From: a virus
Taxonomy: Duplodnaviria; Heunggongvirae; Uroviricota; Caudoviricetes
Length of the DNA: 14,741 bases
Reading direction: 5' to 3' (one strand)
Virus record (IMG/VR): IMGVR_UViG_2657245664_000011
The translations under genes were made by a program, and so were the position numbers. This document shows, piece after piece, positions 1 through 12,009 of this stretch. How positions within the stretch are numbered: the first letter of the stretch is position 1; the number at the start of each line of letters is the position of its first letter. The notes under the pieces are model-generated. The model worked only from the letters and a program-made list of their open reading frames with translations. It made no database searches and was not told the origin of the DNA.

Positions 1-1053
1 TTACGGGGTAATGCCAACCGCTGCCGCCACTTTGTCGCCACTTGGCAGCGTTGCCAGAGGATTGAAACGGAGCGCCGTTTCTAGATGATCCGGTGCCAGA
101 TGTGCGTAACGCATAGTCATTTTTATATCGTGGTGTCCGAGAATTTTTTGTAAGGCCAGAATGTTTCCACCCGACATCATGAAGTGCGCCGCAAACGTAT
201 GGCGCAGAACGTGTGTGAGTTGACCGCGAGGGAGCACGATAGACGTTTTTTCCATCACGGATAAAAATTGAAAATAGCAGTCTGTGAAGAAATTGAACCC
301 ATCAAGCGCCATGATCTCTTCGTAAAGCTCTTTACTGATAGGGATGCTTCTGTTTTTCTTCCCCTTCGTTCTGACAAAGGTAATTCGGTATTTGGTCACC
401 TGTGAGCGGGTAAGATTTACGGCTTCACGCCAGCGTGCGCCTGTGCTTAAGCATATCTTAACTACCAGTGCCAGAATTGGGTCCTGACGTTTGCAATCAG
501 CCAGCAATTCAACAATCTGCTCATGGGTAAGCCATGCCATCTCTTTTTCTGCGATGGTGAATTTTCGCATGTTCTCCAGTGGGTTCGGATACGACCATTC
601 GCCCAGACGGGATAGTTCGCTAAAAACACTACTTAGATAGCTTTGCTCCAGGTTAATGGTGACCGGGCTTGCTCCTTTCTTCCATTTCTCGCTGAAGTAG
701 ATCTCGCCTGTCAGGCGTTTATCTCGATAGTGGGCAAACATTTTAGAGGTGAGATCGGTTGCAAGAGGATTGCCCAGAGCGTCAACCATCAACAGCAATT
801 TGTCATAGACATGCTGCCCAGCTGTCAGAGATTTACCATGTAGTTTGAACCATAGCTCAACCACGTCTTTCAGTGTTCGACGATCCACTGATTCACCCAG
901 CCAGGGCTTTGCTTCGGTTTCTTCCATCGTGTGGCGCTCAAAAGCCAGTGCTTCGCCTTTGGTGGCGAATTGTTTACGCACACGACGCCCACTTCGTCCG
1001 GCGGGGTAACATTCGCAAAGCCATTTCCCTGTGGTTAGTTTTCGTACTGCCAT
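1..1053 (-). CDS. int: Tyrosine site-specific integrase, P2/186 family
   Basis: 350-aa ORF whose C-terminal region carries the tyrosine-recombinase signature (LRHTFA ... GHHDIKMTMRYAHL, with the catalytic Tyr). It sits at the prophage end, co-oriented with the repressor. The stop codon is at positions 1-3, so the gene is complete. Confidence 0.9.
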   Translation of the reverse strand: MAVRKLTTGKWLCECYPAGRSGRRVRKQFATKGEALAFERHTMEETEAKPWLGESVDRRTLKDVVELWFKLHGKSLTAGQHVYDKLLLMVDALGNPLATDLTSKMFAHYRDKRLTGEIYFSEKWKKGASPVTINLEQSYLSSVFSELSRLGEWSYPNPLENMRKFTIAEKEMAWLTHEQIVELLADCKRQDPILALVVKICLSTGARWREAVNLTRSQVTKYRITFVRTKGKKNRSIPISKELYEEIMALDGFNFFTDCYFQFLSVMEKTSIVLPRGQLTHVLRHTFAAHFMMSGGNILALQKILGHHDIKMTMRYAHLAPDHLETALRFNPLATLPSGDKVAAAVGITP

Positions 1054-1080
1054 AAAAAGCCCTCATATCAGAGGGCTAAA
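1054..1080 (-). terminator. Hairpin followed by a T-run immediately upstream of the int ATG; candidate intrinsic terminator for the cargo gene and/or an RBS-sequestering structure
   Basis: On the minus strand the sequence reads AGCCCTC-TGATAT-GAGGGCT-TTTTT-ATG (7-bp stem, 6-nt loop, T5). The GAGGG in the 3' arm is also the only plausible Shine-Dalgarno for int. Confidence 0.35.
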
Positions 1081-1135
1081 TTTAACTGTATATGTAACCA
1101 GTAATCAATGTGTGATTACTATGAAACATACATTG

Positions 1136-2812
1136 CTAAGCAACATGTAGTTCATCGTTGGCGGAAGTGGCTGCTTTGCGCTCCTGCTCAATAGCTAGAG
1201 ACTCTCTATATTCTTTCGCCTCTGCAAACATTGTCCAGTGGGCGTTGATGTTCATGTCTTCAATAACTGATTTGATTTCTTTTAAATTTACGTTAAAAAA
1301 CTCTTTTCGTGAGTTAATTTTATTGACCTGCTTTTCGTTGAAAACTTTATGCAGATGGTTTTCTAATGATGGTGCATCATCACTATAAATCATCGCATGA
1401 ACATCGAACGAAAAAGGAACACTAGCATCTCCGAGTTCACGAACACGATCAAGTGGTTCAAGGCGGCGTGTCATTCCAATTTTATATACATCTTCGCCAA
1501 ATGAACCAATATTACTAATGATATAGACGTGGCCTGATCTGGTTTGTTGAGCCATAGAAATAGCTCGTTGATTTTTAGCTTCAGCTTCTTCATATTTTAA
1601 CTGTAGTTCAGCTATTTTTTGCTCTAAAGCTAAGCGTTGTTCTTCATTTGCAAGCATAAGTTCTTTCGTTGCTTTATTTATAGCTTGCTGAATAGCTTTT
1701 TCTTCTTTTTCAGCTTCTTTTATCGCTTTTTCATATTCTCTACGAGCTCTTTCCTCTTCACGAAGCTGTTCTTTAATCCTTCTTTGCTCTTCTTTTTCTT
1801 CGAGCATAATTTCATTAACTGCTACACCCCATTTTAGCTCGTTGAGTCTTGCCTGAAGATAGATGTCACTTATTTTTGCGGACCTAAAGGCAGAGCCATT
1901 GTAATTTACTAGTTGAAATGCATCTTTTATTTCTTGGGAAAGTTTTCCAAAATTGTTGTGTTTGACTTTTGATAAAATACTGTCAACTCTTCCATTGAAG
2001 GCATCCAAAACAAAGTTTATGGCAGTATTACGCCTGTTTTGCTCAACATAATCACACGAAGCAGCTTTATTAGTTTTTATTAATGATTTGGTTAACTCTC
2101 TGGCTTTTTGTAATTCCTTGCCTGCATCTGTAAATTCATAATTTTCTGCCAGCTCATCAAGTACACTACGGTTAGGGATGATCCATTCATCACCATAACC
2201 TTCAATTTTATTTTTCATTGATTTTGCAACTGCTTCATATTTTTCTGCAAACTCTTTAGCTTCATATGCTGAACCAGCAATCTCCTTTGCTCTTTCTTCT
2301 GCATCAGAAATAATTTTTACTGCATTGTCATTAGCATTTGAGATTAGCTCATTTGCTTTATTATTAGCATTATCAAGACGTTCTTTGGCTTTCAGGCGTG
2401 CATCGCGAGCGTCTTTGGTGATTGCTATAGCTTCGCTATTAGCGTTGCTTATTGTCATCTGAGCTTGATAATTTGCTTCGTTTACTGTTTTAGCCGCCTT
2501 AATTTGGGCTTCATCTATTTTTTGCTTGGCTATTGAGTCCGCATTTTTTATCTTATTCTCTGCATCCATTACTGCGCTGTGCAATTCTTCGTATTGCCAC
2601 AATGGTGCTGCTCGCCCTTCAAGCTCTGATAATTCTCGTACGGTCTGTGCTAGTTTTTCTTGATTTTCAATCAGTTGGTTAGAAAGGGCTATGTTGTTAG
2701 CTGTCAGGTTATCTATAGCCGCTTTGTGTTTTTTACTTTGTTTAAATAATATTACAGCTAGAACAGGGGCGAGAAATGCTAATAAGAGTATAACGATGGC
2801 AAATGAATTCAT
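1136..2812 (-). CDS. Prophage cargo protein: N-terminal transmembrane anchor, long coiled coils, a central DUF4041-like region and a C-terminal T5orf172/GIY-YIG-like domain; candidate defense or exclusion factor
   Basis: 558-aa ORF with an AAGGA ribosome-binding site 7 nt upstream of the ATG. The N-terminus (FAIVILLLAFLAPVLAVILF) is a hydrophobic helix. Long K/E/A/N-rich heptad-like stretches follow. The C-terminus (GHVYIISNIGSFGEDVYKIGMTRRLEPLDRVRELGDASVPFSFDVHAMIYSDDAPSLENHLHKVFNEKQVNKINSRKEFFNVNLKEIKSVIE) matches the T5orf172 pattern as I recall it. The gene is visibly more AT-rich than the flanking phage genes. Confidence 0.8.
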   Translation of the reverse strand: MNSFAIVILLLAFLAPVLAVILFKQSKKHKAAIDNLTANNIALSNQLIENQEKLAQTVRELSELEGRAAPLWQYEELHSAVMDAENKIKNADSIAKQKIDEAQIKAAKTVNEANYQAQMTISNANSEAIAITKDARDARLKAKERLDNANNKANELISNANDNAVKIISDAEERAKEIAGSAYEAKEFAEKYEAVAKSMKNKIEGYGDEWIIPNRSVLDELAENYEFTDAGKELQKARELTKSLIKTNKAASCDYVEQNRRNTAINFVLDAFNGRVDSILSKVKHNNFGKLSQEIKDAFQLVNYNGSAFRSAKISDIYLQARLNELKWGVAVNEIMLEEKEEQRRIKEQLREEERARREYEKAIKEAEKEEKAIQQAINKATKELMLANEEQRLALEQKIAELQLKYEEAEAKNQRAISMAQQTRSGHVYIISNIGSFGEDVYKIGMTRRLEPLDRVRELGDASVPFSFDVHAMIYSDDAPSLENHLHKVFNEKQVNKINSRKEFFNVNLKEIKSVIEDMNINAHWTMFAEAKEYRESLAIEQERKAATSANDELHVA

Positions 2813-2832
2813 TTTAAAATCCTTTTACTATA

Positions 2833-3429
2833 TTAATTCGAGACTATTGTACTTCTTATACAAGCAACCACTTCAATATCAGAAAATGCACATTCAAAGC
2901 TATTCTCTGCTGTTGTAATTTTAATCATTCCTTTAGGAAGCCTTGTGATTTTTCGAATGGAATAGGTTCCGTCGATATTGATTAACCAGTTTCCATCAAG
3001 TACTTCAGAAAATTTTTGATCACAAATGTATGTGACGAGTCCATCCTGAACAACAATTGGTGATGAAAGGTTTGCAGGAAGAAATGATGAATCGAAGACA
3101 TATGAACCGTCTTCAATCATTTTGCCTGCGGCAAGGCGAAACTTAACAAGCTCTTCTGTAGCTGCTGTCAGCGAGCTTTGCTTAAGGCCTTGTCCGGTAG
3201 TTAACCATTTGAGGGAGGTTCCTGTTTCAAGAGCACATTGGATTATCCAGTCAGCAGGAAATGTATCCCGCAAATACCTGTTCGCTAGTGTGCTTTTTGA
3301 TACTTCCAAGTGATCAGCTAAAGCCTGTCGTGTCGTAAAGCCATAGGCTTCGACTAATCGCTCAATCGCAGCCTTACCACCTTTATTGGGATTTATTTTG
3401 ATCTCACTTGGGTACTTTGATGTTGACAT
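2833..3429 (-). CDS. cI: CI-like immunity repressor (phage 186 CI type, N-terminal HTH plus C-terminal oligomerisation domain)
   Basis: 198-aa ORF divergent from apl/cII. The N-terminal pattern EAYGFTTRQALADHL...LANRYLR...CALETG..LKWLTTGQG is the 186 CI-type HTH as I recall it. Position and length are close to 186 CI. Confidence 0.8.
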   Translation of the reverse strand: MSTSKYPSEIKINPNKGGKAAIERLVEAYGFTTRQALADHLEVSKSTLANRYLRDTFPADWIIQCALETGTSLKWLTTGQGLKQSSLTAATEELVKFRLAAGKMIEDGSYVFDSSFLPANLSSPIVVQDGLVTYICDQKFSEVLDGNWLINIDGTYSIRKITRLPKGMIKITTAENSFECAFSDIEVVACIRSTIVSN

Positions 3430-3451
3430 ATCTCTTTTGCGATCCTAGTAT
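3423..3451 (+). promoter_or_regulatory. Candidate early lytic promoter pR (sigma70)
   Basis: TTGACA at 3423-3428, a 17-bp spacer, then TAGTAT at 3446-3451. It faces apl/cII and overlaps the cI start codon, consistent with a 186-type switch. Confidence 0.55.
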
Positions 3452-3458
3452 CAGTTTT

Positions 3459-3474
3459 GTACCCAATTGGGTAC
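3459..3474. promoter_or_regulatory. Perfect 16-bp palindrome GTACCCAATTGGGTAC at the predicted pR start; candidate operator for CI or Apl
   Basis: Exact dyad symmetry read directly from the sequence. A TTGGGTAC half-site recurs at 3408-3415. Confidence 0.45.
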
Positions 3475-3524
3475 TTGTCACGATTACTACAGGCTCACCA
3501 CAAGCCAATAGGAGATGTTGCATC

Positions 3525-3746
3525 ATGACCCCTAACATTTCAATAACTCTGAATACGCCACACGTCACAATCGAGCGTTATAGCGAACTTACTGGTCTTT
3601 CAATCGACACAATCAACGATATGTTGGCGGATGGTCGCATTCCTCGGCATCGTCTTCGTAAAGACAAGAAAAGAGAAAAGGTAATGATCAACCTTGCTGC
3701 TCTTACCGTTGATGCACTTACTGATTGCAATGTTGTATTCAACTAG
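3525..3746 (+). CDS. apl: Apl/Cox-like excisionase and transcriptional regulator
   Basis: 73-aa ORF that is the first gene rightward of the switch. A small basic protein with an HTH-like segment ([29 protein letters not shown]). The ATG at 3525 is preferred over the upstream TTG of the ORF track because that extension would run through the promoter and into cI. Confidence 0.7.
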
Positions 3747-3778
3747 TTCCATTTTGGGATACATCAGAGGTGTCGACC

Positions 3779-4288
3779 ATGTTTGATTACCAAGTTTCCA
3801 AACATCCACATTTTGATGAAGCCTGTCGTGCATTCGCACTGCGCCACAATCTGGTGCAACTGGCAGAACGTGCGGGCATGAATGTGCAGATTCTGCGGAA
3901 CAAGCTGAACCCAGCTCAACCTCATTTATTAACCGCACCAGAAATCTGGCTGCTTACCGATCTGACTGAAGATTCAACGTTGGTAGATGGTTTTCTGGCA
4001 CAGATTCATTGTCTGCCATGTGTACCGATTAATGAGGTAGCAAAAGAGAAACTGCCGCATTACGTCATGAGCGCAACTGCAGAGATCGGGCGTGTTGCAG
4101 CAGGTGCGGTATCTGGTGATGTAAAAACTAGTGCCGGTCGTCGTGATGCTATCAGCAGCATTAACTCTGTAACACGACTGATGGCTCTGGCTGCTGTTTC
4201 ATTGCAAGCCCGTTTACAGGCTAATCCTGCGATGGCGAGTGCAGTTGATACCATGACTGGCCTTGGTGCTTCATTCGGTTTGCTGTGA
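3779..4288 (+). CDS. cII: CII-like activator of lysogeny establishment (186 CII type)
   Basis: ATG at 3779 with an AGAGG ribosome-binding site 8 nt upstream gives a 169-aa product starting [21 protein letters not shown], which closely resembles 186 CII as I recall it and matches its length. Confidence 0.8.
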
Positions 4289-4295
4289 GGTGTTT

Positions 4296-4592
4296 ATGCT
4301 GACGAAAGAACCATCATTTGCATCGCTGCTGGTAAAACAAAGCCCGGCAATGCACTACGGTCACGGCTGGATCACGGGTGAGGATGGAAAACGCTGGCAT
4401 CCATGTCATTCACAAGATGAATTGCTGTCTGAATTGACCACGAGGAAACGGAGAAAGTCCAAATGTATGCGGCAGAAAGTGAAGTGGTTTATCAGTTTCG
4501 TTACAGAGGGGAGAGTTATTCAGTACCTGAAGGTGATTTGCTCTGTTGCTATCCGTCATTGTCGGGCGATGGCAGTTACTTTTTCACGTTAA
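4296..4592 (+). CDS. Hypothetical early protein in the fil/dhr position
   Basis: ATG at 4296 with a GAGG ribosome-binding site. The N-terminal half looks protein-like, while the Cys/Arg-rich C-terminal third overlaps the next ORF and may not be translated as drawn. Confidence 0.4.
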   Translation: MLTKEPSFASLLVKQSPAMHYGHGWITGEDGKRWHPCHSQDELLSELTTRKRRKSKCMRQKVKWFISFVTEGRVIQYLKVICSVAIRHCRAMAVTFSR

Positions 4593-4687
4593 AGGATGGG
4601 ACGTTTTTACGGGGAGAGCAGGTTAAAGAGACGATACGAAAAAATGTATCTCCTCTTGAGCGTTACCGTAAGAACAAAGAACGATAG
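4463..4687 (+). CDS. Hypothetical early protein
   Basis: 74-aa ORF with a GGAG ribosome-binding site and natural-looking composition. It overlaps the preceding ORF by about 130 nt in another frame. Confidence 0.5.
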   Translation: MYAAESEVVYQFRYRGESYSVPEGDLLCCYPSLSGDGSYFFTLKDGTFLRGEQVKETIRKNVSPLERYRKNKER

Positions 4688-4709
4688 CTGCGTTTGGGGG
4701 ATATGAAGT

Positions 4710-5051
4710 ATGGCAATTAATGGCGCTGCAGCAACTGTTCCATTAAGCCCCGGTGAACGCCTGAATGGACTTAATCACATTGCGGAGTTAAGGGCGAAAG
4801 TTTTTGGCCTGAATATTGAGTCAGAGCTTGAGCGGTTTATTAAAGATATGCGTGATCCACGGGATATCAATAATGAACAAAATAAACGGGCACTGGCTGC
4901 CATATTCTTTATGGCAAAAATTCCAGCTGAACGTCATAGCATCAGCATTAATGAGCTGACCACTGACGAAAAGCGGGAGCTGATTAAAGCAATGAATCAT
5001 TTTCGTGCAGTGGTGAGCTTATTTCCCAGACGGCTAACCATGCCGAATTAA
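4710..5051 (+). CDS. Hypothetical early protein
   Basis: 113-aa ORF co-oriented in the early operon with a G-rich ribosome-binding site upstream. Confidence 0.55.
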   Translation: MAINGAAATVPLSPGERLNGLNHIAELRAKVFGLNIESELERFIKDMRDPRDINNEQNKRALAAIFFMAKIPAERHSISINELTTDEKRELIKAMNHFRAVVSLFPRRLTMPN

Positions 5052-5118
5052 CCAACTAATGAAATTAATGGCGTAAACCCGCCGGGCATCCCTTTATCTA
5101 AATTCAGGAGAATTGATT

Positions 5119-5352
5119 ATGCGTAATATTGAAACCCTCACGACTAAAACCGGACCGGATGACGCAGGGCTTAATATTTTACTGACAGAGGCTCGTCTGG
5201 AAGAACGCCGGGCAAGGGCTGAAGCAATGGCTGCTCGCCTTGATAGCCTGGCGTGTCATATCTCATCCCGCCAGCTAAACCACGTGGAAGCGGCAGAACT
5301 GCTGCGCGTGACTGCTGAAGCAATCCAGAACGAAGCGCAGGAGATCCACTAA
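5119..5352 (+). CDS. Hypothetical early protein
   Basis: AGGAG ribosome-binding site 8 nt upstream of the ATG at 5119. Its stop overlaps the next start (TAATG), suggesting translational coupling. Confidence 0.5.
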   Translation: MRNIETLTTKTGPDDAGLNILLTEARLEERRARAEAMAARLDSLACHISSRQLNHVEAAELLRVTAEAIQNEAQEIH

Positions 5353-5579
5353 TGGCTGATGCAATGGATCTCGTACAGCAGCGCGTTGAAGAAGAACGCC
5401 AGCGCCATATCCGTGCAGCCCGTGCCAAATCACCGGGCGTGTCACGCGTACTTTGCATTGAATGTGAAGCGCCAATTCCGCCAGCACGACGCCGCGCCAT
5501 TCCGGGAGTGCAGCTTTGCATTACCTGTCAGGAAATCGCAGAACTGAAAGGCAAACATTACAACGGAGGTGCTGTATGA
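5352..5579 (+). CDS. TraR/DksA-family C4 zinc-finger protein
   Basis: 75-aa ORF with CIECEAPIP...CITCQ, two CxxC pairs at the spacing typical of phage TraR-like proteins. Confidence 0.7.
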   Translation: MADAMDLVQQRVEEERQRHIRAARAKSPGVSRVLCIECEAPIPPARRRAIPGVQLCITCQEIAELKGKHYNGGAV

Positions 5580-6433
5580 GCACCATCCTGAAATGGGCGG
5601 GAAATAAAACCGCCATTATGCCAGAACTGAAAAAATACCTTCCTGCTGGCCCGCGACTGGTTGAACCTTTCGCGGGTTCCTGTGCTGTGATGATGGAAAC
5701 GGATTATCCCAGCTATCTGGTTGCGGATATTAATCCTGATTTAATCAACCTCTATAAAAAGGTTGCCGCTGATTGTGAATCGTTTATATCTCGCGCCAGA
5801 GTTTTATTTGAGATCGCAAACAGGGAGGTGGCTTATTACAACATAAGGCAGGAGTTTAACTGCTCAACTGAAATTACTGATTTCATGAAAGCGGTATATT
5901 TCCTGTATCTCAATCGTCACGGTTACCGTGGTTTATGTCGCTATAACAAGAGCGGGCATTTCAACATTCCCTACGGTAATTATAAAAATCCGTATTTCCC
6001 TGAAAAAGAACTTCGCACATTTGCAGAAAAAGCCCAGCGAGCAACGTTTATCTGCGCCAGCTTTGATGAAACGCTGGCGATGTTGAAGGCGGGAGATGTG
6101 GTGTATTGCGATCCGCCATATGACGGTACGTTTTCCGGCTATCACACTGATGGTTTCACTGAAGATGACCAGTATCACCTGGCATCCGTTCTTGAACATC
6201 GGTCATCAGAAGGACATCCGGTCATTGTTTCTAACAGTGACACATCCCTGATCCGTTCGCTGTATCGCAATTTTACTCACCACTATATCAAGGTAAAACG
6301 CAGCATCGGTGTGGCAGCTGGCGAGGGTAAATCAGCAACAGAAATCATTGCTGTTTCCGGGCCGCGCTGCTGGATGGGATTTGATTATTCGCGTGGCGTG
6401 GATAGTTCTGCCGTGTACGGAGTACGTGCATGA
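5576..6433 (+). CDS. dam: Dam-family N6-adenine DNA methyltransferase (orphan, phage-encoded)
   Basis: ATG at 5576 with a GGAGG ribosome-binding site. Carries ILKWAGNK, an AdoMet-binding motif (EPFAGSCAV) and the catalytic DPPY. Start and stop overlap the neighbours as ATGA, so it is translationally coupled between the TraR-like gene and gene A. Confidence 0.85.
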
Positions 6434-7956
6434 GTCATGCCGATATGAACAACTGCTGCGGCTTTAACGAGGCTGCCGCAGCATTCTCATGGAACAGCCC
6501 GAAAAAGGCCATTAACCCTTATCTGGACCCGGCGGAAGTTGCGCCGGTTTCTACGCTTTCAAACCTGATCACTCTGTACGCTGCCGATAACGAGCAGGAA
6601 CAGTTGCGCCGCGAGGCACTGAGTGATCAGGTCTGGGAGCGTTATTTCTTTAATGAATCACGTGATCCTGTCCAGCGCGAAATGGAGCAGGATAAGCTCA
6701 TTAGCCGGGCAAAGCTGGCGCATGAGCAGCAGCGTTTTAATTCAGACATGGTCATTCTGGCGGACGTCAACGCCCAGCCTTCCCATATCAGCAAGCCGCT
6801 GATGCAACGTATTGAATACTTCAGCAGCCTGGGCAGGCCAAAGGCTTATTCCCGCTATTTACGTGAGACGATTAAGCCATGTCTGGAACGACTGGAGCAT
6901 GTACGCGACAGTCAGCTATCTGCATCTTTTCGCTTTATGGCAAGCCATGAAGGGCTGGACGGCCTGCTGATCCTGCCTGAAATGAGTCAGGATCAGGTGA
7001 AACGCCTGTCCACCTTGGTAGCTGCGCATATGAGTATGTGCCTTGATGCAGCTTGTGGTGATTTGTATGCCACCGATGACGTTAAGCCAGAAGAAATCCG
7101 CAAGACATGGGAAAAGGTGGCAGCGGAAACCCTGCGTCTGGATGTCATCCCACCTGCGTTTGAGCAACTCCGTCGGAAAAGAAACCGCCGTAAACCCGTG
7201 CCGTATGAACTCATTCCGGGTTCGCTGGCGCGTATGTTGTGCGCCGACTGGTGGTATCGGAAATTATGGAAGATGCGTTGCGAATGGCGGGAAGAGCAGT
7301 TGCGCGCTGTTTGCCTGGTCAGCAAAAAAGCATCTCCTTATGTCAGCTATGAAGCCGTGATGCATAAACGTGAGCAGCGCCGTAAGTCGCTGGAGTTTTT
7401 CCGTTCTCATGAACTGGTGAACGAAGACGGCGACACGCTGGACATGGAGGATGTGGTAAACGCCAGCAGCAGCAACCCTGCGCATCGCCGCAATGAGATG
7501 ATGGCCTGTGTTAAAGGTCTGGAGCTTATCGCGGAAATGCGCGGTGACTGCGCCGTTTTCTACACTATCACCTGTCCGTCGCGTTTCCATTCCACGCTAA
7601 ATAACGGCAGACCAAACCCGACCTGGACAAACGCGACGGTAAGACAAAGCAGCGATTATCTGGTCGGCATGTTTGCTGCATTTCGTAAGGCGATGCACAA
7701 AGCCGGGTTGCGCTGGTATGGCGTGCGGGTGGCTGAGCCGCATCATGATGGCACAGTTCACTGGCACCTGTTGTGTTTCATGCGCAAAAAAGACCGCCGT
7801 GCCATCACTGCATTACTGCGTAAGTTTGCCATCCGTGAAGACCGCGAGGAGCTGGGCAATAACACTGGGCCGCGCTTTAAGTCTGAGTTGATTAAGCACT
7901 GTGTGTCAGGCTGGATGGCGTGGAAAAATAGGTTTGTCGCCATTTTTTGTGAATAG
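6430..7956 (+). pseudogene. A: Replication initiation endonuclease gpA (rolling-circle HUH type), C-terminally truncated
   Basis: 508-aa ORF containing the HUH motif (TVHWHLLCF). It ends in a short atypical tail that overlaps the inverted terminase fragment. P2/186 A proteins are about 700-760 aa, so the C-terminal part is missing. Confidence 0.75.
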
Positions 7957-8764
7957 CCATACCGGAAGCCACTTTGCGCAGCTCCTGGAATTTCGGTATC
8001 CAGAAATATTCATCCAGATACAGGTTGCCGTGGTAACTCTGGGCCGTGCGGGCATTGGTGCCGAGGAAGTACAGCGTGGCCCCGTTAGGAAGCACCATCG
8101 GATCGCCTTTCAGCTCCACCTCCACTTCTTTGGCGAAGTCGATGATGTACTGCTTAAAGACGTGGGCCTGAGCCTTGCTGGCGGAAAGGAAAATCTGGTT
8201 ACGCCCGGTTAGCAGGGCGTCAATCAGGGCTTCACGGGCAAAATAGAAGGTCGCGCCGATCTGGCGTGACTTCAGCAGGTTGCGGATGCGGTTGGTTTTT
8301 CCGGCTTCCCACCAGTGGCGCTGGTAGTTGAACATGGAGGAATGGAAGATTTCTTCCAGCTTCTCAATCTGTTCATCGGTGAAAACGTTCTTTTCCGGCT
8401 GACGGCGCGGGCCTTTGTTGCGGTTGGCGACGTTAGGGTTTAAGTCGGCTTCGTTGCCGCCATTGTTAAACTTGCCGATCCGCGCATGGCGCTCCGACTG
8501 GCGCGCCAGCAGGTCAATCTCTTTGAAATCTTTCCCTTCTTTGTGCTCCTTCATAATGAGCTGGCAGTAGCGTGCGGCGGTGGTGAGCTGCATCTGATCC
8601 AGCGGCCCATAGTCACCCCACTTGTCGCGTTTTTTCCAGCTGTGAACGGTTGCAACTTTCTCGCCCAGCATTTCAGCAATGCGGGCTACGCGGTATCCCT
8701 GAAAGTACAGCAGCATGGCCTGCCGACGGGGATCGAGATCTGCGGGTGTCAGTGTGGTGTTCAT
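7892..8764 (-). pseudogene. P: Terminase ATPase (large subunit) gpP, N-terminal fragment only
   Basis: 290-aa ORF with P2 gpP-like N-terminus and Walker-type motifs ([24 protein letters not shown]). A full gpP is about 590 aa, and the nuclease half is absent. Its orientation is opposite to gene A, as in P2. Confidence 0.8.
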
Positions 8765-8813
8765 GGCACAAACCTACAGCCTTGAATGAAGGCTTTCCCC
8801 GCCTGCGGTTTGT

Positions 8814-9998
8814 GTGGTTGCGGGTTTACTTACTGCACCGTTGTCATCTTTGCGCCGCACGGCATCACTGACGGGAAATGTCATGAAAACTGTAGCAGGT
8901 GCGCCGGTTGCACTTTTGCGGTCTGGATTATCCGGTTTACGTGCTGTTGCTGTGATGTTTATGAATCCTCTGGCGGTACTGCGCGGTGGACTGGTCGCCG
9001 CAGGCACGGTGCTGCGAGTACTGGCATCTGGTCCACTGGCGATGCTGCGCGTTGCCCTGTATGCCGTATCTGGTCTGTTAGGTGCTCTGCTCAGTCCGAT
9101 AGGTCTTGTGGTTACTGCACTGGCGGGCGTGGCGCTGGTTGTCTGGAAATACTGGCAACCCATCACCGCATTTCTTGGTGGCGTGGTGGAAGGATTCAAA
9201 GCGGCGGCAGGTCCCGTCAGTGCAGCATTCGAACCACTTAAGCCTGTGTTTCAGTGGATTGGCGACAAAGTGCAGGCGCTCTGGGGCTGGTTTACTGATC
9301 TGCTGACGCCCGTTAAGTCGACCTCTGCCGAACTGCAGAGCGCAGCGGCAATGGGGCGACGATTCGGGGAGGCACTGGCGGAAGGGCTGAATATGGTTAT
9401 GCATCCGCTGGACTCCCTGAAATCTGGCGTTTCCTGGTTGCTGGATAAACTCGGCATTGTCAGTAAAGAGGCTGCAAAGGCGAAACTGCCGGAAAGCGTG
9501 ACGCGTCAGCAACCTGCGACGGTGAATGCAGACGGTAAAGTGATGATGCCATCGGGTGGTTTTCCGTCATGGGGATATGGCTTTGCGGGGATGTATGACA
9601 GCGGCGGCTATATCCCGCGTGGGCAGTTTGGCATCGTCGGTGAAAACGGGCCGGAAATTGTTAACGGCCCGGCAAATGTGACCAGCCGGAGAAATACAGC
9701 TGCACTGGCTGCCGTTGTTGCCGGAATGATGGGCGTTGCTGCCGCGCCAGCAGAGCTTCCACCGTTGCACCCTTTGGCACTTCCCGCGAAAGGTGGAGAA
9801 GCAATTGTGAGTCGCGCAGCCACTGTGCCGCTCGTTCAACGGATTGAGGCACCGACGCAGATCATCATTCAGACGCAGCCAGGACAAAGTGCGCAGGATA
9901 TTGCGCGGGAGGTGGCACGCCAGCTTGATGAACGTGAACGCAGGCTGAAGGCAAAAGCCAGGAGTAACTACAGCGATCAGGGGGGATACGACGCATGA
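8814..9998 (+). pseudogene. T: Tail tape measure protein gpT, C-terminal fragment
   Basis: 394-aa G/A/L-rich ORF whose stop overlaps the gpU start (ATGA). The frame opens only at 8790, a few bases from the terminase fragment start, and the first possible start is a GTG. P2 gpT is about 815 aa. Confidence 0.7.
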
Positions 9999-10480
9999 TG
10001 ATGGTGCTGGGATTGTACGTGTTTATGCTGCGCACCGTTCCGTATCAGGAACTGCAGTATCAACGCAGCTGGCGACATGCGGCAAACAGCCGGGTAAACC
10101 GTCGTCCGTCCACGCAGTTTCTGGGACCGGAAAACGACATGCTGACGCTTTCCGGTGTTCTTATGCCGGAGATAACAGGCGGCAGGCTGTCGTTGCTGGC
10201 ACTGGAGCAGATGGCAGAACAGGGGAAAGCATGGCCCCTGATTGAAGGCAGCGGCACGATTTACGGCATGTATGTGATTGAGGGACTGAATCAGACTAAA
10301 ACGGAGTTTTTCCGCGACGGTATGCCGCGCAGGATTGAGTTCACCCTTTCGCTAAAACGGGTGGATGAATCCCTGTCCGATATGTTCGGTGATCTCAGTA
10401 CTCAACTGAATAATCTGCAGGACACGGCAACGTCTGCCTTAAGCGATATCAGTAAAACGGTGGGAGGGCTGCTGTCGTGA
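9995..10480 (+). CDS. U: Tail protein gpU
   Basis: 161-aa ORF in the T-U-D order, coupled to T upstream and D downstream. Its size matches P2 gpU. Confidence 0.85.
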   Translation: MMMVLGLYVFMLRTVPYQELQYQRSWRHAANSRVNRRPSTQFLGPENDMLTLSGVLMPEITGGRLSLLALEQMAEQGKAWPLIEGSGTIYGMYVIEGLNQTKTEFFRDGMPRRIEFTLSLKRVDESLSDMFGDLSTQLNNLQDTATSALSDISKTVGGLLS

Positions 10481-11577
10481 ATTTCAGCTCTGAACTGCTT
10501 AACAAAGGAAACAAAACTCCCGCATTCAGCATCAGTATTGAGGGGAAGGATATCACCACTGTGCTGGATAACCGCCTGATGAGTCTGACGCTGACGGACA
10601 ATCGGGGCTTTGAAGCGGACCAACTTGATCTGGAGCTGGACGACGCCGACGGAAAAATCGTGCTGCCGCGCCGTGGTGCGGTCATTACGCTGGCGCTGGG
10701 CTGGAAGGGGCAGCCGCTTTTCCCGAAAGGGGCATTCACGGTGGACGAGATTGAACACACTGGCGCACCGGACCGCCTGACTATCCGGGCGCGAAGTGCT
10801 GATTTTCGGGAAACGCTGAATACCCGCCGTGAAAAATCGTGGCATAACACCACCATCGGGGAAGTGGTGAAGGAAATAGCCGCGCGGCACAAGCTGAAGA
10901 TGGCACTGGGTAAAGACCTGTCGGATAAGCCCGTGGAGCATATAGACCAGACTAATGAGAGTGACGGCAGTTTTTTGATGCGGCTGGCGCGCCAGTACGG
11001 TGCCATTGCATCGGTGAAAAATGGCAATCTGTTATTCATCCGGCAGGGACAGGGCAAAAGCGCCAGCGGTAAACCACTGCCGGTGATTACTATCACACGT
11101 AAGGACGGCGACAGTCACCGCTTTACCCTGGCAGATCGCGGAGCTTACACGGGGGTAATTGCCAGCTGGTTGCATACCCGCGAACCCGCGAAGAAAGAAA
11201 GCACTACGGTGAAGCGTAAGCGCAGGACTAAGAAGCAGAAGAAAGAGCCGGAAGCGAAGCAGGGCGATTACCTGGTGGGGACGGATGAAAACGTGCTGGT
11301 ACTTAATCGCACTTATGCCAACCGGAGCAACGCTGAACGGGCAGCGAAAATGCAGTGGGAACGCCTGCAACGCGGCGTTGCGTCATTCTCGCTACAACTG
11401 GCGGAAGGGCGGGCAGATCTCTACACGGAAATGCCAGTGAAAGTCAGTGGCTTTAAACAGCCGATAGATGATGCGGAATGGAGCATTACGACTCTGACGC
11501 ATACCGTCAGCCCGGATAACGGTTTTACGACCAGTCTGGAGCTTGAAGTGAGGATTGATGATTTCGAAATGGAATGA
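10477..11577 (+). CDS. D: Tail protein gpD
   Basis: 366-aa ORF with a GTG start overlapping the U stop. It occupies the P2 D position immediately before ogr. Confidence 0.85.
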   Translation: MNFSSELLNKGNKTPAFSISIEGKDITTVLDNRLMSLTLTDNRGFEADQLDLELDDADGKIVLPRRGAVITLALGWKGQPLFPKGAFTVDEIEHTGAPDRLTIRARSADFRETLNTRREKSWHNTTIGEVVKEIAARHKLKMALGKDLSDKPVEHIDQTNESDGSFLMRLARQYGAIASVKNGNLLFIRQGQGKSASGKPLPVITITRKDGDSHRFTLADRGAYTGVIASWLHTREPAKKESTTVKRKRRTKKQKKEPEAKQGDYLVGTDENVLVLNRTYANRSNAERAAKMQWERLQRGVASFSLQLAEGRADLYTEMPVKVSGFKQPIDDAEWSITTLTHTVSPDNGFTTSLELEVRIDDFEME

Positions 11578-11886: not shown

Positions 11887-11972
11887 CGCTGCCGCCATTT
11901 TGTCGCCATCGTTAAAAAACAGTGCTTCTAACATCATGATTTTAAACAGCATAAATTTCAGGCAACAAAAAA

Positions 11973-12009
11973 CCCATCAACCTTGAACCGAAATGGCGGG
12001 GTTGATGGG
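11973..12009. other. Inverted repeat CCCATCAACC / GGTTGATGGG (10-bp stem, 17-nt loop) in the ogr-ybjL intergenic region; possible terminator or part of attR
   Basis: Read directly from the sequence. It lies between convergent ogr (+) and ybjL (-) at the expected prophage-chromosome boundary. Confidence 0.3.

Follow-up and report, generated by a model that had tools for sequence, protein, structure and literature searches.

The stretch of DNA analyzed here, referred to as the window, is the 14,741-nucleotide IMG/VR virus record IMGVR_UViG_2657245664_000011, and all coordinates are given relative to its full length. The interval of interest, positions 5352-6433 on the plus strand, consists of two open reading frames (ORFs). 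The first (5352..5579) encodes a 75-amino-acid protein of the TraR/DksA type with a four-cysteine (C4) zinc finger, a homologue of CP81 of phage 186 and orf82 of P2. The second (5576..6433), referred to as dam, encodes an orphan Dam-family N6-adenine DNA methyltransferase of 285 amino acids with GATC as its predicted target. On the same strand, a DUF2732 gene, homologous to P2 orf80 and 186 CP80 and annotated in relatives, lies upstream (5119..5352; PF10809, 3.6e-29), and a truncated replication gene A lies downstream (6430..7956; PF05840, 3e-114, profile positions 1-300 of 321). At the junction of the DUF2732 and TraR-like genes, CACTAATGG, the stop codon TAA lies over the start codon ATG, giving TAATG at 5350-5354. 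The TraR-like gene and dam meet at GTATGAGC, sharing an ATGA at 5576-5579 with GGAGGTG just before it, and dam and gene A meet at GCATGAGT, where the shared ATGA at 6430-6433 follows directly on GGAG. An original prediction, made from the letters of the window, had held that overlapping start and stop junctions link the methyltransferase to the TraR-like gene and gene A, and these junctions proved exact. All three overlaps (TAATG or TGATG, then ATGA and ATGA) were retained in nine of nine aligned alleles, a set comprising the window and eight others, of which those of CPE35 and phage 813R9 are near-identical to the window and six are diverged. The 285-codon ORF is intact in all eight additional alleles. 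It is very probable that the gene is an orphan GATC-specific Dam of the Fels-2, Elveevirus and retron-Ec67-prophage group of P2/186-like temperate phages, which keeps replicating phage DNA methylated.

The assignment to the Dam family is based on several searches. The protein matched PF02086, which represents the D12-class (alpha-group) N6-adenine methyltransferases, along the entire profile (positions 1-253 of 253; 2.2e-75, 254 bits against a cutoff of 22) and the NCBIfam Dam subfamily TIGR00571 "dam" with 318 bits (cutoff, 114.85), and its best PADLOC match was the orphan-methyltransferase model (1.6e-110). When sequences of solved structures were searched, E. coli Dam (EcoDam; 2G1P, 4GOL, and 4RTJ) gave the top matches at 3e-73, a level of sequence match that settles the Dam fold; identity to EcoDam in a global alignment is 47.6%. 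Against NF008152, the equivalog model of the host Dam, the window protein scored 287 bits, below the cutoff of 441, and by these profile scores it is a phage paralogue distinct from the chromosomal dam orthologue. The prediction of an orphan Dam-family enzyme is thus borne out by PF02086, TIGR00571, the EcoDam structures and the PADLOC model. The DPPY of catalytic motif IV, which had been described as intact, was found at D179-P-P-Y182, aligned with D181-Y184 of EcoDam; it is invariant in the nine alleles, and the alignment to EcoDam revealed no disruption of the catalytic motif. The codons of this motif (GAT CCG CCA TAT, 6108-6119) themselves hold a GATC site, at 6110-6113. The claim of an intact S-adenosylmethionine-binding motif held in part. 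F32, G34, and the acidic ribose-binding residue D51 (equivalent to D54 of EcoDam) are present, but motif I reads F32-A-G34-S-C36, a Cys replacing the last Gly of FxGxG in all alleles, in what appears to be a minor deviation.

At its GATC site, EcoDam uses R124 to read the G:C pair, L122 and P134 to contact the inner pairs, Y119 to intercalate, K9 and Y138 to recognize the first pair, and N120 to contact a base (PMC4417163). K9, Y119, L122, R124, P134, and Y138 are all conserved in the window protein, while N120 is replaced by Arg (nine of nine alleles), and GATC is accordingly given as a predicted target. Relative to the window allele, the ratio of nonsynonymous to synonymous substitution rates (dN/dS) of dam was 0.15 to 0.38 across the six diverged alleles, with the key residues all invariant; dam is under purifying selection across relatives.

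To place the predicted target in the context of phage genomes, GATC sites were counted in 12 whole genomes from seven genera, a comparison whose statistics ignore shared ancestry. Expected numbers were derived from dinucleotide shuffles; Wphi, PSP3, Fels-2, and Cartapus are represented by observed counts only. Among the phages from which dam is absent, 186 has 14 sites (112 ± 8 expected), P2 has 25 (121 ± 10), pro483 has 12 (108 ± 10), fiAA91-ss has 31 (123 ± 11), P88 has 75 (128 ± 10), Wphi has 30, and PSP3 has 25. Where dam is present, 116 sites were found in RE-2010 (113 ± 9 expected), 117 in Fels-2, 107 in Cartapus, 129 in ESSI2_ev015 (93 ± 10), and 197 in SEN4 (113 ± 10). The ratio of observed to expected sites ranges from 0.11 to 0.59 in the five dam-less genomes with an expectation and from 1.0 to 1.75 in the dam carriers where it was measured. 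The separation is complete, with all seven dam-less genomes depleted and all five dam-carrying genomes at or above expectation, SEN4 and ESSI2_ev015 even being enriched. The prophage part of the window, with 40 GATC sites in 12 kb, follows the dam-carrying pattern, and no enrichment or clustering of GATC was found in the window as a whole (55 observed against 50.8 ± 6.2 expected). Control palindromes of identical composition (CATG, GTAC, and TCGA) do not split dam-carrying from dam-less phages; the ranges in the two groups were 131-140 versus 111-125 for CATG and 57-71 versus 57-90 for GTAC, and TCGA is, if anything, higher in dam-less phages. In the case of TCGA, 186 and PSP3 have 144 and 138 copies, respectively, against 50-86 in dam carriers, an approximately twofold excess that may be a compositional by-product of GATC avoidance or may be unrelated to it.

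That enterobacteriophages counterselect GATC, and that this is tied to MutH and undermethylation, is established (McClelland 1984 and Deschavanne & Radman 1991, both cited in PMC5014478). Given this known pressure, phages whose dam methylates their DNA during lytic growth would be expected to be free of depletion. The contrast supports both GATC specificity and real activity of the enzyme while the phage passes through its life cycle. Since methylation-dependent nucleases would make dam carriers avoid the site even more, the contrast also favors undermethylated over methylated GATC as the source of the pressure on phages that lack dam. With slightly less than even confidence, we propose that acquisition of dam directly upstream of A may switch P2-like phages between two genome strategies, in which GATC is purged approximately 2- to 9-fold without dam and stands at or above expectation with it. 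Should the association be causal, closely related phages that share their hosts but differ in carrying dam would form a natural experiment on what selects against GATC (MutH, restriction, or SeqA binding), which could also show whether the coupling of dam to the initiator gene matters. The contrast within one family likewise offers a simple test of the old hypothesis that undermethylated GATC is costly to phages.

The window carries a 186/Fels-2-type prophage that sits between rcdA and ybjL of E. coli. On the minus strand it begins with int (1-1053), followed by a PD-Lambda-1 defense gene (1136-2812; PD-Lambda-1 model, 2.4e-120) and an intact repressor gene, cI, of the 186 CI type (2833..3429; PF07022, 8e-32; PF16452, 3.5e-27). 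A pR-like early lytic promoter was identified on the plus strand at 3423..3451, where TTGACA (3423-3428) and TAGTAT (3446-3451) are separated by 17 nt and together give 10 of 12 matches in a consensus scan; a GATC lies inside the spacer at 3441-3444. The location of this promoter relative to cI and apl agrees with that of pR in 186. The genes 3' of it are, in order, apl/cox, cII, fil, a DUF5347 gene, the DUF2732 gene, the TraR-like gene, dam, and gene A, and the promoter would drive this series from apl, cII, and fil through the TraR-like gene and dam to A. Scans for internal promoters or terminators that would decouple dam from pR gave no more than chance. Two copies of TTGGGTACTT flank the promoter (3408-3417 and 3467-3476), the second of them being part of GTACCCAATTGGGTAC (3459-3474), a 16-bp sequence that is perfectly palindromic and likely to be an operator.

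According to the 186 record, A is apparently translated only when ribosomes reach the end of orf84, the gene directly preceding it, and terminator tM1 is placed just inside A. By analogy, the ATGA overlap between dam and A is likely to be a functional coupling that ties methylase output to the replication initiator. As gene A is truncated in the window, dam is here coupled to a dead gene.

The first approximately 488 codons of the window gene A are authentic and are followed by approximately 20 out-of-frame codons from terminase-gene antisense. An H-W-H motif is present at amino acids 443-445 and homology ends near amino acid 489, while the alignment to 186 A stops at amino acid 432, directly before GYVAKYISKN and well upstream of the ori. 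The A proteins of intact relatives are 803-804 amino acids long. Compared with the P2 gpA rolling-circle initiator, which is recognized by its HUH motif, tyrosine pair, and internal ori, the window product falls short; the catalytic tyrosines, assigned after P2 A, were presumably in the lost part. The cause is a deletion with a 3-bp overlap at 7893..7895, located by blastn against phage 813R9, which joins codon ~489 of gene A to the middle of the terminase ATPase gene. Positions 1-7895 of the window correspond to 2889-10783 of the 813R9 locus, and positions 7893-8823 correspond to 15757-16688. Approximately 5 to 6 kb were lost in this deletion, among them the C terminus of A with the ori, the genes of Tum-like and DinI-like type, the portal gene, several cargo genes, and one half of the gene for the terminase. 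An older deletion (window positions 8764-8823), common to the CPE35 prophage, fused a tape-measure gene that has lost its 5' end to the promoter region of the terminase and took the capsid, lysis, and most tail genes. What follows gene A in the window is therefore limited to the terminase and tape-measure gene remnants, then gpU, gpD, ogr, and attR. The last of these is a 27-nt direct repeat beside ybjL (11951..11977, plus strand) that exactly matches the repeat found at 400-426 and 18399-18425 of the CPE35 locus; attL of the window prophage lies just left of the window start.

The window and the CPE35 prophage agree at 100% in two pieces that span 20.7 kb, the CPE35 prophage being the less deleted of the two, and the exact window arrangement was absent from all complete E. 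coli genomes in the collection. The dam genes of the two prophages are identical in nucleotide sequence, so that intactness here is uninformative on selection in the remnant. The window dam is an intact passenger in a dead prophage, which is left without a functional gene A or ori, without an antirepressor of its own, and without most of the genes for morphogenesis.

Two of the genes lost bear on expression. In intact relatives, A is followed by a 189-nt ORF and a DinI-like gene, both inside the window deletion, and their counterparts in PSP3 and Fels-2 are the two parts of the split tum antirepressor locus (PMC3121763). With the Tum-like antirepressor lost, SOS derepression in cis is unlikely, and the operon could be switched on only by loss of CI or by an antirepressor supplied in trans. 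The original prediction had placed the methyltransferase in the early operon of a defective prophage, and on both points the analysis agrees, dam lying downstream of a pR-like promoter in the 186 gene order and gene A being cut by the deletion into the terminase gene. Its further suggestion, that the gene may still be expressed on derepression, stands insofar as cI, the pR-like promoter, and dam are intact but is weakened by the deletion of the prophage's own SOS-responsive antirepressor.

The TraR-like protein exceeded the cutoffs of both TIGR02419 (66.2 bits; cutoff, 59.7) and PF01258 (3e-11, 43.5 bits; cutoff, 24.9), and its four-cysteine zinc finger is complete (C35, C38, C56, and C59). 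It shares 68% identity with a 186 protein labeled in its record as "unknown function; not essential," and the dN/dS of its gene was 0.02 to 0.05 in most comparisons of the six diverged alleles with the window. From the curated 186 record and the P2 and PSP3 records, the stretch from the TraR-like gene to A was found to be a variable slot, occupied by three nonessential ORFs in 186, by orf83 in P2, by a 173-amino-acid ORF in PSP3, and by dam in the window. In the distant genera ESSI2_ev015 and SEN4, too, the block of genes immediately preceding A includes a Dam homologue. That of ESSI2_ev015 (48% identity) overlaps gene A directly, and that of SEN4 (43% identity) is separated from A by a gene for a cytosine methylase. 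Three methyltransferase genes surround A in SEN4 (26561-32049), the Dam homologue and the cytosine methylase upstream and a DNA methylase downstream, an arrangement which suggests that the slot beside gene A may repeatedly gather DNA-modification genes.

In every relative examined, dam is flanked by the DUF2732 gene, the TraR-like gene, and the gene for gpA. No restriction endonuclease was found beside dam in the window, where the neighbors identified by profile are the DUF5347, DUF2732, and TraR-like genes and gpA, and the absence of such a neighbor had been foreseen. The only nuclease-like gene nearby is PD-Lambda-1, 2.8 kb off on the opposite strand, past cI. Located between int and cI, it encodes a 558-amino-acid protein with DUF4041 and T5orf172/MUG113 domains, and relatives hold different cargo at this position, such as a RES-domain protein in Cartapus. 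Its position, its strand, and the lack of co-occurrence ruled it out as a cognate nuclease of dam.

The dam gene is widespread. Across its 1.6-kb region, identity is 99.9% to phage vB_EcoM-813R9 and 96 to 97% to both Escherichia phage Cartapus and dozens of phages of Klebsiella, with the Cartapus and Klebsiella phage records annotating its gene as Dam; the order of TraR-like gene, dam, and gene A also recurs in Fels-2, RE-2010, Cartapus, and many Klebsiella phages. At >90% identity, dam was present in 1,239 of 5,426 complete E. coli genomes (about a quarter), and in 12 of the 12 E. coli matches listed its neighbors include a TraR/DksA gene, a gene for a replication endonuclease, or both. The exact window protein was found on at least 1,000 contigs, and its 90% identity cluster has 4,038 members, one of which is named "retron EC67 DNA adenine methylase"; STM2730 in the Fels-2 record carries the same retron EC67 methylase note. 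Hsu, Inouye, and Inouye (1990, PNAS 87:9454) reportedly described a 285-residue ORF that maps at 19 min and shares approximately 44% identity with Dam, and the Ec67 Dam was reportedly shown to be active, as the title of their paper suggests. Dodd and Egan reportedly recognized the Ec67 element as a 186-related prophage in 1996. The element is a 34-kb insert with 26-bp flanking repeats and carries a Dam gene (PMC7826664).

The window dam is thus a long-known and widely annotated prophage gene and not a discovery. In the searchable literature on the function of P2-like prophage Dam, no study of the role of the window enzyme was found, and in that on Peduoviridae and GATC, the dam-linked contrast was not found. 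The ST131 prophage methylase M.EcoMIV was ruled out as the window gene; the only annotated DNA adenine methylase in the stretch of E. coli EC958 that was examined is a 254-amino-acid enzyme in a Mu-like prophage (31787-32551). M.EcoMIV is a predicted Dam homologue that was silent by reverse transcription-PCR (PMC4659465).

From the gene order and the GATC contrast, a working model of the enzyme's role can be proposed. In a lysogen of an intact phage, dam would be silent owing to repression of pR by CI, and after induction or infection it would be made from the early lytic transcript. Its translation would be coupled to that of both neighbors, the TraR-like gene on the upstream side and the gene for gpA, the rolling-circle initiator, on the downstream side, and through the latter coupling the supply of methylase would rise along with replication. 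The phage Dam would then most likely keep fast-replicating rolling-circle DNA fully GATC methylated where host Dam is limiting, and full methylation could spare it nicking by MutH/MutHLS or, in other hosts, Dam-sensitive GATC restriction.

Several points weigh against this model. The host already has Dam, so that the benefit would probably be quantitative and protection from restriction only one of several possible benefits. The GATC activity of the window allele is a prediction, made for a protein that has Arg where EcoDam has the base-contacting N120 and Cys in place of the final Gly of motif I. The GATC contrast is an association rather than a cause and cannot separate MutH from restriction. 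Finally, with no cis antirepressor for the operon in the window, expression there may never occur.

Among the alternatives, the one that carries substantial weight is that dam in the window prophage is a not-yet-decayed leftover without present function, for which we consider the chances about even. The prophage has no functional A, ori, Tum-like gene, portal gene, capsid, lysis, or most tail genes, and the identity of dam to the CPE35 copy leaves no time for decay and no sign of selection in situ. The ORF, ribosome-binding site, and promoter are nevertheless intact, and expression after CI loss or derepression in trans is possible; moreover, an inert copy here is compatible with the identity and ancestral function proposed above. 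Classical antirestriction, in which the enzyme guards against Dam-sensitive GATC endonucleases of the MboI/DpnII type and not against mismatch-repair nicking, overlaps the proposed role and differs from it only in the selective agent. Such enzymes are, to our knowledge, not typical of the Enterobacteriaceae, which counts against this explanation, and the known hosts (E. coli, Salmonella, and Klebsiella) all have Dam, so that phage DNA leaves them largely methylated. Phage orphan methyltransferases are generally interpreted as antirestriction factors (PMC3091744; PMC12707154), and GATC avoidance in dam-less relatives follows equally from restriction pressure, but Deschavanne & Radman tied the counterselection to MutH (cited in PMC5014478), and antirestriction as the sole agent is considered unlikely, if still worth weighing.

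An epigenetic role, whether by methylation of particular GATC sites at phage or host promoters or for excision, or as a lysogenic-conversion trait, appears quite improbable. The GATC in the pR-like spacer (3441-3444) is suggestive, Dam methylation is reported to favor excision of the P2-like SopE-phi prophage (PMC7380047), and reviews suggest that many orphan phage methyltransferases regulate viral cycles (PMC12707154). However, dam lies in a CI-repressed lytic operon and should be off in lysogens, as prophage methyltransferases typically are transcriptionally silent (PMC4659465; PMC12707154); the same sites are already methylated by host Dam, and the genome-wide difference in GATC points to a bulk rather than a site-specific effect. 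Still less probable is an altered or relaxed specificity, that is, non-GATC or broad adenine methylation arising through N120R and the motif I Cys. N120 of EcoDam does contact a base (PMC4417163), Arg replaces it in nine of nine alleles, and some prophage methyltransferases, such as M.EcoGI, are reported to be nonspecific (PMC4659465), but the GATC-discriminating R124, L122, P134, K9, Y138, and Y119 are conserved, the TIGR00571 score is well over the cutoff, and GATC composition separates dam-carrying from dam-less phages while the control tetramers do not. A restriction-modification-like pair formed by dam and PD-Lambda-1 can be given almost no credence. The T5orf172/MUG113 domain is GIY-YIG-like and both genes reside in one prophage, but PD-Lambda-1 lies 2.8 kb away in the opposite orientation and on the lysogenic side of cI, it fits a stand-alone, single-gene defense model, and relatives retain dam with quite different genes at its position.

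For the window itself, the gene is a routine prophage methylase in a dead prophage, and the GATC contrast is the only part worth carrying forward. More generally, residual GATC methylation seen in dam mutants, or extra methylation after prophage derepression, may come from such prophage copies of Dam.

Viewed against known systems, the window enzyme resembles T4 Dam and P1 Dmt, which are also orphan GATC adenine methylases made in lytic growth. Both are only distant relatives in sequence (3e-18 for T4 Dam). Unlike P1, P2-like phages package from cos sites, and we know of no methylation-dependent packaging step in them. P1 needs GATC methylation for pac cutting, while it is unclear what T4 Dam does in vivo (PMC12707154). 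In phage 186, orf84, the gene directly upstream of A, overlaps A by an ATGA just as dam does, although the 186 gene is PAPS-reductase-like and not a methylase, and coupling of dam to A is proposed by analogy. With E. coli Dam, the window enzyme shares the fold family, 47.6% identity, the DPPY motif, and the GATC-reading residues; it differs in having Arg for N120, in a 22-amino-acid C-terminal tail, and in being phage borne within a lytic operon. The retron Ec67 prophage offers a Dam homologue in a 186-related prophage, flanked by 26-bp repeats where a 27-nt repeat is found here; the window prophage is heavily deleted and shows no retron, and the likeness is drawn from the cluster name and description rather than from the allele sequence. 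The dam genes of Fels-2 (STM2730), RE-2010, Cartapus, 813R9, and Klebsiella phages such as 4LV2017 belong to complete phages with a full-length A, unlike the truncated A of the window, and they share with the window gene 95 to 100% amino acid identity and the same order of DUF2732 gene, TraR-like gene, dam, and gpA, with the same junctions.

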